In this document: piece after piece, positions 1,514 through 56,698 of the stretch
Position numbering within the stretch: position 1 is the stretch's first letter
Layout of the letters: each line of letters begins with the position of its first letter
Source of the DNA: a virus
IMG/VR virus record: IMGVR_UViG_3300001199_000005
Span: 64,001-128,000 of that record
DNA length: 64,000 nt
Direction: 5' to 3' (one strand)
Program-made: the position numbers and the translations under genes
The notes under the pieces: generated by a model
The model's input: the letters and a program-made list of their open reading frames with translations, nothing else
The model's database searches: none
Told to the model about the DNA's origin: nothing

Positions 1514-1551
1514 AAAACAAAAACACCTTCCTATTTACATAAGAAGGTGTT
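1514..1551 (-). terminator. Intrinsic terminator of attenuator 1, upstream of tRNA-Ser/Ser/Tyr/Trp
   Basis: AACACCTTCTTAT-GTAA-ATAGGAAGGTGTT followed by TTTGTTTT. Confidence 0.88.
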
Positions 1552-1572
1552 AGATTTTGTTTATACAATATT

Positions 1573-1632
1573 CTAGCAACCTTCTCGAAGAAAGTACCAC
1601 GAACTAGAATAAGTATAAGTAGTTGTTTTCAT
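1573..1632 (-). CDS. Attenuator leader peptide MKTTTYTYSSSWYFLREGC (19 aa)
   Basis: ATG..TAG just downstream of a consensus promoter; run TAT ACT TAT TCT AGT TCG TGG TAC; 3' end GAGAAGGTTG is complementary to the terminator 5' arm. Confidence 0.85.
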   Translation of the reverse strand: MKTTTYTYSSSWYFLREGC

Positions 1633-1650
1633 TTTAGCTTAATTTATTTG

Positions 1651-1682
1651 CAAATATAATTTGCTTAAGCTATACTTCCAAA
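1651..1682 (-). promoter_or_regulatory. Bacteroidota housekeeping sigma promoter of the tRNA operon
   Basis: Exact TTTG-N20-TATATTTG (-33/-7 consensus). Confidence 0.8.
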
Positions 1683-4185: not shown

Positions 4186-4552
4186 GTGGTATGGTAATAT
4201 GCTGATAATCTACACAAACAATTTTATTCTTCTTAATACCCAGGTTGCGGTCATGGCAATCTGGAACAATACTTAAGTTATAAAATTCTTGCAGTTGGTT
4301 AACTGTACAAACACCGACTTTTGGTATATACTCTGATACTAGTATCCTATCATTAAATAGACTTAAATATGGTTTAGCAAACCAACCAAGATACTGCGGA
4401 ACATCTCTCTGTACTCTTCTGTAGTTAAGAAGTTCTGCTCTATTGTTAGCACCATCATAGAATTTGTCTATTTTAATGACAAACAATTTACAGACAATGA
4501 CATCTCTATATGAGCCGCTTTTGCAAAGCAGCAACTTTAGTAGTTTAATCAT
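4157..4552 (-). CDS. Minimal protein-kinase-like protein
   Basis: VIKI (beta-3 Lys), NRAE (alpha-C Glu), DCHDRNLG catalytic loop, VCVDY (DFG-like). Confidence 0.65.
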   Translation of the reverse strand: MIKLLKLLLCKSGSYRDVIVCKLFVIKIDKFYDGANNRAELLNYRRVQRDVPQYLGWFAKPYLSLFNDRILVSEYIPKVGVCTVNQLQEFYNLSIVPDCHDRNLGIKKNKIVCVDYQHITIPHVKKILSLS

Positions 4553-4849
4553 TTAGTAGTCTATTATGTCTTCGTGACTTCCGATGATACCGCCACAATC
4601 ATGTAAGAATAATGCAAAATCATGTGTGCCAAAGCGCACATCGTCTTGAAAGACGAGGACAATTTTGTTATCCAGGATTTGCATTATCTCCGTATTATCG
4701 GTGATATAATCGTAGACTTGTCTAGGGACTTTTAATCCCCGTATGCGTGCTGTTTCATATGGGTAGTACCCAATAAGGGTAAAACCGTCTAGTTTGATGG
4801 GAGTTTCGAGCTCTCTAAAGCTCTTGGCTCTTTTTGTTTTCTCTGCCAT
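4553..4849 (-). CDS. Hypothetical protein
   Basis: 98-aa ORF in operon. Confidence 0.7.
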   Translation of the reverse strand: MAEKTKRAKSFRELETPIKLDGFTLIGYYPYETARIRGLKVPRQVYDYITDNTEIMQILDNKIVLVFQDDVRFGTHDFALFLHDCGGIIGSHEDIIDY

Positions 4850-55591: not shown

Positions 55592-56698
55592 ATGACTAAA
55601 GAAACTTGGTTAAAAAATATTAAAAGCGTACCAAAGCATAATAGAGGTGCAGTCCTACTAGATATAGGACAGGCCACTTTACCTGCTATTGCTGGTTATG
55701 CAACAAAGAGGTTAACAGATAAGAATGTTGTTCCTGCAGCAAGATTACAAGCTACACAATATTATAATCCTACTGTAACCAATTATGGTGCAGACTTACT
55801 AAGAGCGGATAACAGATTAATGGGACAGCTAAGATTAGCCACTCCTAAAACTGCTAACGCTGCTATTAATACTGCTCAAGCTTTAGCCATTCAAGATAAA
55901 GTAAATGAGCAGCATTCAACTACTGGAGCGCAGTTAGCTGCAAACTACGCACAAAATTTAGCACAGCAAACTAATATTATGAATCAACAAGCCAGAGAAA
56001 GAACAGGTATTGCTAATCAAAATATTATTAATGCTGTAGAAGCTGAGAAACAAGAAACATTAGCTAGACAACAGGCTGATGCTGCTGCAATTAGTGGTTA
56101 TTTACAAACAGCTTCTAATCTTATGACAACTACTGGTAAATACAGAGACCAGTACGAACAAGCAGCGTTAGACGAAAATAATAGAGCTGTTCTTAATAAT
56201 ATTGAACTTAAAACTGCTGAATTAAATAACCTATTTAACTCTCAATTAAGTGCAACACCAGAACAAAATAAAGTAATAGAAGAACAAATAAGGATAAAAA
56301 GAGGAGAAATATTAGCAGAGAAAGCGAAACTTAAACACTATGACCCAAGAGTACGATTTAAGTCTGGGCAGGCAAATGAAACAGGTAGTGAAGAACAGCC
56401 TAACACAGGACAACAAATTAATATAGGTTTAACAGACCTCACCACGCGGCCCTGGGCTACAGGTCGAACAGCATTTAATCAACGCCCTGTTTATAACTTA
56501 AATACTATTTTTAATAATGCAGATAGTGTAGATAATAATAATCAGCAAACAATTTATGATATGAACGCCTTACGCGATTATTTAACTAATTTATTGCAAC
56601 CAAAATATAAAACAGGCGGTTCAATAGCAGCAAAAAATAAAGCATCTATTGCAGACTATAAAGCAAAATTGAAATGGATGAGTATAAAGCTATGCTAA
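55592..56698 (+). CDS. Ejection/cargo protein
   Basis: Ala/Gln/Asn-rich helical protein with YKTGG motif. Confidence 0.65.
   Translation: MTKETWLKNIKSVPKHNRGAVLLDIGQATLPAIAGYATKRLTDKNVVPAARLQATQYYNPTVTNYGADLLRADNRLMGQLRLATPKTANAAINTAQALAIQDKVNEQHSTTGAQLAANYAQNLAQQTNIMNQQARERTGIANQNIINAVEAEKQETLARQQADAAAISGYLQTASNLMTTTGKYRDQYEQAALDENNRAVLNNIELKTAELNNLFNSQLSATPEQNKVIEEQIRIKRGEILAEKAKLKHYDPRVRFKSGQANETGSEEQPNTGQQINIGLTDLTTRPWATGRTAFNQRPVYNLNTIFNNADSVDNNNQQTIYDMNALRDYLTNLLQPKYKTGGSIAAKNKASIADYKAKLKWMSIKLC

Follow-up and report, generated by a model that had tools for sequence, protein, structure and literature searches.

The DNA analyzed here is a 64,000-nt stretch (positions 64,001 to 128,000 of the IMG/VR virus record IMGVR_UViG_3300001199_000005; hereafter, the window) of an uncultured, crAss-related phage. 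Upstream of one group of its transfer RNA (tRNA) genes lies what we interpret as a codon-sensing leader-peptide attenuator of transcription, organized in the manner of the trp operon. We put the probability of this interpretation, which relies in part on RNA folding models, at roughly 0.63. It is favored because a promoter motif, a short open reading frame (ORF), three alternative helices, a ribosome-masking model, the match between leader codons and downstream tRNAs, the start context of the leader and a sister unit in the same operon all fit it. According to this interpretation, the phage probably makes these tRNAs mainly when ribosomes read the leader codons slowly. An initial annotation of the region had proposed a leader-peptide attenuator sensing Ser, Tyr and Trp, and the modeling described below supports that proposal. 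The source record is linear and 152,878 bp long, with a completeness of 85% according to CheckV, and its terminase, portal and capsid genes are those of a crAss-like phage. The attenuator locus lies on the minus strand, where promoter, leader ORF, terminator and tRNA genes follow one another in this order (Table 1).

The leader ORF is preceded by a Bacteroidetes-type promoter motif located approximately 19 nt 5' of the leader ATG, with an 18-nt A/U-rich stretch in between. After the ATG, the leader reads AAA ACA ACT ACT TAT ACT TAT TCT AGT TCG TGG TAC TTT CTT CGA GAA GGT TGC. The run from ACA to TAC, with the Ser/Tyr/Trp(/Thr) content reported in the initial annotation, is thus present in an ORF at 1632–1573 on the minus strand. 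The start context was evaluated with a position weight matrix derived from 115 long-ORF starts of the phage. The leader ATG falls in the 59th percentile of real gene starts and in the 96th percentile of random ATGs, and the second leader behaves similarly, so that the context is typical of the real genes of this phage. We infer that the leader ORF is translated and that its translation is coupled to transcription. The genome conforms to the standard genetic code, under which long ORFs total 125 kb. Since TAG terminates 12 of the 133 long ORFs, the leader TAG is a genuine stop in this genome. A longer leader produced by stop recoding was considered and rejected, given the fit of the standard code; a ribosome reading through the TAG would in any case meet an in-frame TAA four codons further on, inside segment 2. 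A scan for sigma-70-type promoters was uninformative, the counts being equal to those in shuffled sequences. The inverted repeat that surrounds the −7 box contains an inner palindrome, ATTTGCAAAT, and, judged from the sequence, may serve as an operator for an additional level of regulation.

The leader RNA forms three mutually exclusive helices, 1:2, 2:3 and 3:4, which together give the anatomy of a classical four-segment attenuator, as in trp. The whole leader RNA folds with −35.3 kcal/mol (z = −5.0), none of 200 shuffles being as good, and the minimum-energy fold at full length combines helix 1:2 with the terminator 3:4. Helix 1:2 contributes −16.5 kcal/mol, a value matched by 22 of 2000 dinucleotide shuffles of segment 1. 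Once segment 1 is removed, the antiterminator 2:3 (−13.6 kcal/mol) becomes the minimum-energy fold; its energy, with at least 8 bases of the terminator arm paired, is attained by 5 of 2000 dinucleotide shuffles of segment 2. The terminator 3:4 has an energy of −17.1 kcal/mol and was independently picked up by a terminator scan. Its U-run ends 3–8 nt before the first tRNA, a gap that leaves no room for another promoter. The initial annotation had described the 13-bp terminator with its GTAA loop, which indeed occupies 1551–1522, and an antiterminator pairing identical to the one found here, whose stability is competitive with that of the terminator. The mutual exclusion that it had postulated is real for helices 2:3 and 3:4, while helix 1:2, which the model needs, had been missed.

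The consequences of ribosome position were modeled by masking a 27-nt footprint at each A-site codon in a transcript that does not yet include segment 4, and by calculating the probability that the 5' arm of the terminator is paired. This probability is 0.93–0.99 with the A site at codons 3–12, 0.86 at codon 13 and 0.48 at codon 14, and it does not exceed 0.12 at codons 15–20, the stop included. The codons that permit antitermination, 3 to 13, encode exactly T T T Y T Y S S S W Y, and the codons for F L R E G C are situated where a stalled ribosome would block antitermination. Consequently, in the model, the boundary in composition (TTTYTYSSSWY / FLREGC) coincides with the functional boundary. 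The idea that a ribosome at the TAG would allow termination and one stalled upstream would prevent it is hence reproduced in silico (at most 0.12 versus 0.86–0.99). In transcripts free of ribosomes, the barrier to rearrangement from 1:2 to 2:3 is approximately 16 kcal/mol according to a direct-path estimate. Considering that helix 1:2 forms first and that the minimum-energy fold contains 1:2 and 3:4, this barrier implies that untranslated transcripts should terminate.

The codon content of the leader corresponds to the tRNAs encoded downstream. The four tRNAs that follow the terminator decode 7 of the 18 leader codons: UAU (twice) and UAC are read by tRNA-Tyr(GUA), UCU and UCG by tRNA-Ser(UGA), AGU by the tRNA-Ser(GCU)-like product and UGG by tRNA-Trp(CCA). 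With Ser, Tyr and Trp accounting for 12.5% of the proteome, the binomial probability of this match is P = 0.004. Among 664 small ORFs in the six frames of the whole genome, 2.4% contain at least 7 Ser/Tyr/Trp codons, and the leader alone has an 11-codon run of S/T/Y/W. In the phage at large, the codons UAU, ACU/ACA, UCU and AGU are heavily used. The correspondence is specific to each leader's own tRNA block, in that only 1 of the 18 codons in leader 1 specifies an amino acid of the second block, and leader 2 has 3 codons for amino acids of the first block versus 5–8 for its own.

The Ser(UGA), Tyr(GUA) and Trp(CCA) genes are credible tRNAs. For the first gene of the block, a class-II covariance model for Ser(GCU) was built from the tRNAs of related phages. 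The gene scores 33.9 bits with this model, close to the values for Tyr (35.4) and Ser(UGA) (31.3), and in a MAFFT alignment its loop UUGCUAA aligns with the CUGCUAA of the relatives' Ser(GCU) tRNAs. It was called neither by ARAGORN at default settings nor by Rfam. An alternative identity as tRNA-Thr(CGU), which ARAGORN proposed only at a 60% threshold, was rejected: it would place a pyrimidine at position 37, and class-II body, acceptor stem and UUGCUAA loop all align with Ser(GCU) tRNAs. The earlier statement that three Ser codons span both Ser boxes and match two isoacceptors holds for the codons and for tRNA-Ser(UGA); the second isoacceptor would be the product of the degenerate Ser(GCU)-like gene.

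A control across the whole genome was carried out by scanning both strands for a hairpin followed by a U-run, then for an ORF of 9–35 codons ending nearby, and by applying an antiterminator filter (−12 kcal/mol or lower, with at least 8 bases of the 5' arm paired). The genome contains 32 terminator-like hairpins, 14 of which have a small ORF ending nearby. Two of the 32 combine a short ORF with an antiterminator, namely the unit described above and a sister unit with its terminator at 256–287. Both directly precede tRNA genes of the same operon, the sister lying 1.2 kb downstream. Codons for Asn, His, Pro and Leu occur in the second leader, which precedes tRNAs for Asn, His and Pro (and Leu).

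Table 1. Positions of the attenuator elements, the tRNA genes and the neighboring features in the window
Feature	Position	Strand	Description
Bacteroidetes-type promoter motif	1651–1682	minus	TTTG (−33 box), 20 nt, TATATTTG (−7 box); exact match to TTTG-N19-21-TAnnTTTG
Leader ORF, MKTTTYTYSSSWYFLREGC	1573–1632	minus	19 codons and TAG; first ATG after the promoter; ATG 1632–1630, TAG 1575–1573
Candidate regulatory codons 3–13	1594–1626	minus	ACA ACT ACT TAT ACT TAT TCT AGT TCG TGG TAC; run of S/T/Y/W
Helix 1:2, anti-antiterminator and possible pause hairpin	1561–1618	minus	Codons 5–10 pair with the stop-codon region; inner hairpin 1595–1579
Helix 2:3, antiterminator	1541–1586	minus	GAGAAGGU..UAGA..UUGU pairs with ACAA..UCUA..ACCUUCUU; sequesters most of the terminator 5' arm
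Helix 3:4, intrinsic terminator	1512–1551	minus	13-bp stem with GUAA loop (1551–1522), then U-run UUUGUUUUAU
tRNA-Ser(GCU)-like gene	1424–1509	minus	Class II, degenerate, encoded CCA; would decode AGU/AGC
tRNA-Ser(UGA)	1329–1417	minus	ARAGORN at relaxed threshold; clean cloverleaf; 31.3 bits with model R1
tRNA-Tyr(GUA)	1232–1322	minus	Class II; 35.4 bits with class-II model
tRNA-Trp(CCA)	1156–1227	minus	Credible tRNA
Sister unit, leader ORF MQFINSLLQPQHLNNQSDWVG	250–398	minus	Antiterminator −19.5 kcal/mol; terminator 256–287; precedes tRNA-Asn, His, Pro
Inverted repeat AGCTTAA / TTAAGCT	1636–1671		7 bp, read from the sequence; arms on either side of the −7 box and of the likely start site
78-aa basic ORF	1685–1921	minus	Directly upstream of the promoter; no PHROG match; no relative in viral contigs
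HNH endonuclease ORF	394–1086	minus	230 aa, Cys-rich; within the tRNA operon, between tRNA-Trp and the CAU tRNA
Class-II tRNA with CAU anticodon	401–487	minus	Long variable arm; 46.3 bits with the Ser(GCU)-type model, highest of the window's tRNAs

In the proposed mechanism, host RNA polymerase would start at the TTTG/TATATTTG promoter and transcribe the 19-codon ORF. If no ribosome is present, or if a ribosome proceeds at normal speed to the TAG, segment 2 would be either paired to segment 1 or hidden beneath the ribosome. With segment 2 unavailable, the terminator 3:4 would form and transcription would end 3–8 nt before the first tRNA. If a ribosome stalls with its A site on codons 3–13 (Thr, Tyr, Ser, Trp), segment 1 would be covered and segment 2 left free to pair with segment 3; no terminator would then form, and the polymerase would read through into the Ser(GCU)-like, Ser(UGA), Tyr and Trp tRNAs. 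These tRNAs would be supplied when charged tRNA for Ser, Tyr or Trp becomes limiting for the phage. Since the products decode 7 of the 11 sensed codons, the arrangement would form a closed negative-feedback loop. We infer that termination is real and that the physiological signal is the one proposed. A further possibility, which we regard as tentative, is that the system operates as a demand-driven 'tRNA on call' circuit, in which the mini-ORF gauges decoding speed and opens the terminator at a tRNA shortage. The shortage could arise from a mismatch between the host tRNA pool and the codon usage of the phage, or from a host anticodon nuclease. In such a circuit, the main and sister units would be independent sensors for different tRNA subsets within one operon.

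Several observations weigh against the attenuator interpretation. Four of the 11 codons from which a stall would permit antitermination are Thr codons (ACA and three ACU) that have no phage tRNA. The initial annotation had pointed to the lack of a tRNA-Thr in the window; this is borne out and extends to the whole 152.9-kb record, which is 85% complete, and the model does not account for the Thr codons. The possibility of a concealed tRNA-Thr at another site was also considered, and the low-threshold ARAGORN calls were rejected as false positives. In related phages, where it had been suggested that the gene be sought, tRNA-Thr(UGU) is present, adjoining tRNA-Tyr in L091 and L095 and tRNA-Ser(UGA) in L089 and L092. 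On this basis, the gene may have been lost here or may reside in the missing 15% of the genome. The sister unit presents a parallel difficulty, as the commonest residue of the second leader is Gln (four codons) and the phage has no tRNA-Gln. In the Ser(GCU)-like gene, 4 of 20 pairs are non-standard (two in the anticodon stem and one each in the T and acceptor stems), and judged from its sequence it may be a pseudo-tRNA.

The promoter and the energetics also give grounds for caution. The window contains only two matches to the promoter motif, the number expected by chance, so that its support derives solely from its placement before the leader ATG. Before segment 4 is made, the ribosome-free equilibrium slightly favors the antiterminator (−19.0 versus −16.5 kcal/mol), so that termination by default has to be argued from kinetics. 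For rearrangement of the antiterminator into the terminator, the estimated barrier is low (approximately 6.6 kcal/mol), from which it follows that the relief of termination, and thus read-through, may be partial.

The comparison with other phages gives the interpretation no support from conservation. Searches of the region with megablast and blastn against 50,697 phage records yielded no match, and exact 24–26-nt patterns taken from the leader (its 26-nt start) and from tRNA-Tyr were absent from viral contigs. Single queries with the 78-aa ORF and the terminase found no match in viral contigs, and a degenerate back-translated leader pattern found none in metagenome contigs. The terminase cluster is a singleton whose next best sequence, on an 11.7-kb contig, is 57% identical; all other terminases are at most 48% identical and come from a large clade of phages of 126–194 kb. 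As distant relatives, the tRNA regions of 12 IMG/VR genomes and of MT835539.1 (L003) were taken, with terminase identities of 42–46%. They were scanned for a terminator beside a tRNA, for a short ORF matching downstream tRNAs, and for the succession of promoter motif, ORF and hairpin. The 13 distant relatives have 4–31 tRNA genes, with several hairpins bearing a GNRA loop and a U-run interspersed among them; in none of them were an ORF, an antiterminator and a terminator convincingly combined into one unit. Weak and non-equivalent candidates in L095 (11152–11295) and L084 (5648–5756) were not counted as conservation.

U-run hairpins directly before tRNAs and without a leader ORF occur in L086 (15212–15239), L087 (14083–14110), L095 (4687–4712) and L100 (2246–2269), with positions given in the orientation of the tRNAs (hence on the reverse complement for loci whose tRNAs occupy the minus strand). 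L003 also has several such pre-tRNA hairpins, and the GNRA loops are often of the form C-GUGA-G. These pre-tRNA GNRA hairpins look like a clade-wide punctuation or terminator element. Because leaderless hairpins are common before the tRNAs of the clade, a hairpin by itself is not evidence of attenuation. In the reverse complement of L003, at approximately 4540–4715, a 12-codon ORF rich in Ile and Leu, MNIFKLILIINL, lies between tRNA-Leu and tRNA-Ile; its ACTCATACTA segment is able to pair with the 3' arm of the next hairpin. From its sequence, this ORF may be a distant analogue of the attenuator. The relatives also encode suppressor-type tRNAs, with the anticodon CUA in L084, L091, L095 and L097, UUA in L003 and L089, and UCA in L088; some members of the clade therefore probably recode stop codons. 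The phage studied here fits the standard code, although genome positions 55703–55794 are called by ARAGORN as a tRNA of 92 nt with the anticodon UUA.

Four other explanations of the locus were weighed. The hairpin might be an ordinary intrinsic terminator, insulator or processing hairpin, which ends upstream transcripts or shapes the 5' terminus of the precursor tRNA, with the short ORF and the alternative pairings arising by coincidence. The leaderless pre-tRNA hairpins of L086, L087, L095, L100 and L003 are the main ground for this explanation, and 14 of the 32 terminators have a small ORF nearby by chance. We nevertheless consider it unlikely: the promoter motif lies 5' of the terminator, so that transcripts starting there must cross it, the antiterminator and helix 1:2 each outperform shuffled sequences, the combination of ORF and antiterminator is found only at two tRNA-operon terminators, and the codon composition coincides with the window of effective ribosome positions. 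A ribosome-dependent attenuator could also report the general status of translation (ribosome availability, global elongation rate or the stage of infection) rather than the supply of particular tRNAs, its codons being set by the pairing in helix 1:2. The segment 1 codons are indeed constrained by pairing with segment 2, and the four Thr codons, like the four Gln codons of leader 2, lack a cognate phage tRNA. Against a general signal stand the enrichment of each leader for amino acids of its own tRNA block rather than the other (7 versus 1 of 18 in leader 1), and the Ser codons that span both boxes and match two isoacceptors; we regard it as quite unlikely.

The switch between terminator and antiterminator could instead be set by a trans-acting factor, such as an RNA-binding protein, an uncharged tRNA or a small RNA. 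The inverted repeat at the promoter is a hint of a further regulator, and there is a weak, sub-threshold resemblance to the PyrR element (RF00515; 30 bits against a gathering threshold of 54, E 0.17). PyrR-type control was rejected, the match stemming from the generic layout of hairpin and terminator, as was T-box control, the T-box model having no match in the Rfam scans. No cis-regulatory family of Rfam reached its threshold; the leader families (Thr, Trp, His, Leu and others) gave no match at E ≤ 1 over 1–2700 and none at the gathering threshold over the whole window. Control by a trans-acting factor would moreover give no reason for the presence of the ORF, for the start context of the leader or for the logic of codon positions; we consider it very improbable. 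We attach equally little weight to the view that the ORF encodes a functional 19-residue micropeptide and that the hairpin merely terminates its mRNA. The start context is good and the peptide is rich in Ser, Thr, Tyr, Trp and Cys, but the leader pattern is unmatched in metagenome contigs and its exact 26-nt start in viral contigs, no processing or partner genes lie nearby, and neither the antiterminator nor the transcription of the abutting tRNAs would be explained.

The attenuator is flanked by genes of other kinds. On its upstream side, the stop codon of the 78-codon ORF, at 1687–1685, lies just 5' of the promoter; this ORF may or may not code for a protein. Downstream of tRNA-Trp, the operon continues with the HNH endonuclease ORF, the class-II CAU tRNA, the second unit of ORF and terminator and then the Asn, His and Pro tRNAs. 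The HNH ORF is likely a homing element, and its insertion might explain lost tRNA genes. Its 3' end runs through the CAU tRNA at 401–487. ARAGORN calls the latter tRNA-Met, and an identity as Met, Ile2 or another type is possible.

Leader-peptide attenuation is a textbook example of transcription–translation coupling, known in enterobacteria from trpL and from the multivalent leaders thrL and ilvL. The phage unit resembles these leaders in its short ORF, clustered regulatory codons, 1:2, 2:3 and 3:4 helices, intrinsic terminator and predicted stall-induced read-through, and it would share with thrL and ilvL the sensing of more than one amino acid. The ratio of antiterminator to terminator energy is no worse than that given by textbook figures for the trp attenuator of E. 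coli. Unlike these leaders, the unit is encoded by a phage, related to crAss, has a Bacteroidetes-type promoter and matches no Rfam leader family. It would also control tRNA genes instead of biosynthetic enzymes, and its output would feed back directly on the quantity that is sensed. The genes downstream thus neither make nor charge the sensed amino acids but are themselves tRNAs, and it is tRNA genes as the target of an attenuator that constitute the point of novelty. To our knowledge, leader-peptide attenuation has so far been described for amino-acid biosynthesis genes and a synthetase operon. The latter is the pheST operon of E. coli, in which the pheM leader governs phenylalanyl-tRNA synthetase. 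Here, too, leader-peptide attenuation acts on a translation component that serves the sensed codons; in contrast to the phage unit, pheST is a cellular operon, encodes a synthetase and senses a single amino acid. The T-box riboswitches of Firmicutes likewise use transcription attenuation to report the state of a particular tRNA, but they bind the uncharged tRNA directly, without an ORF, and control synthetase, biosynthesis and transport genes.

A full-text literature search turned up no publication in which a leader peptide controls tRNA genes. Among tRNA operons that translational stress induces, the closest case in print is the trn operon of Anabaena PCC 7120, whose promoter is regulated by direct repeats together with the repressor TrcR (PMC8421152, PMC10272220). 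As proposed for the phage block, it is an accessory tRNA array that is silent and is switched on when translation is impaired, but the papers mention no attenuator or leader peptide (PMC8421152, PMC10272220). Phage tRNAs have also been discussed as a counter-defense against host systems that cleave tRNAs, which provides a rationale for specific phage tRNAs, such as tRNA-Tyr, when host tRNAs are depleted (PMC10264068, PMC11555353). The passages of these papers considered here concern the function of phage tRNAs and contain no mention of demand-sensing control of transcription (PMC10264068, PMC11555353).

If the attenuator interpretation is correct, a virus would monitor the decoding capacity of the infected cell codon by codon and replenish individual tRNAs through direct feedback. 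Such a circuit would be relevant to the long-standing question about the purpose of phage tRNAs, be it codon compensation or escape from defenses that target tRNAs. The unit would also represent a compact, portable sensor of codon-specific translation speed, and the leader codons would serve as a readable 'label' of the shortages that a phage expects. Attenuation by leader peptides would thereby extend to the crAss-related phages that infect Bacteroidetes.

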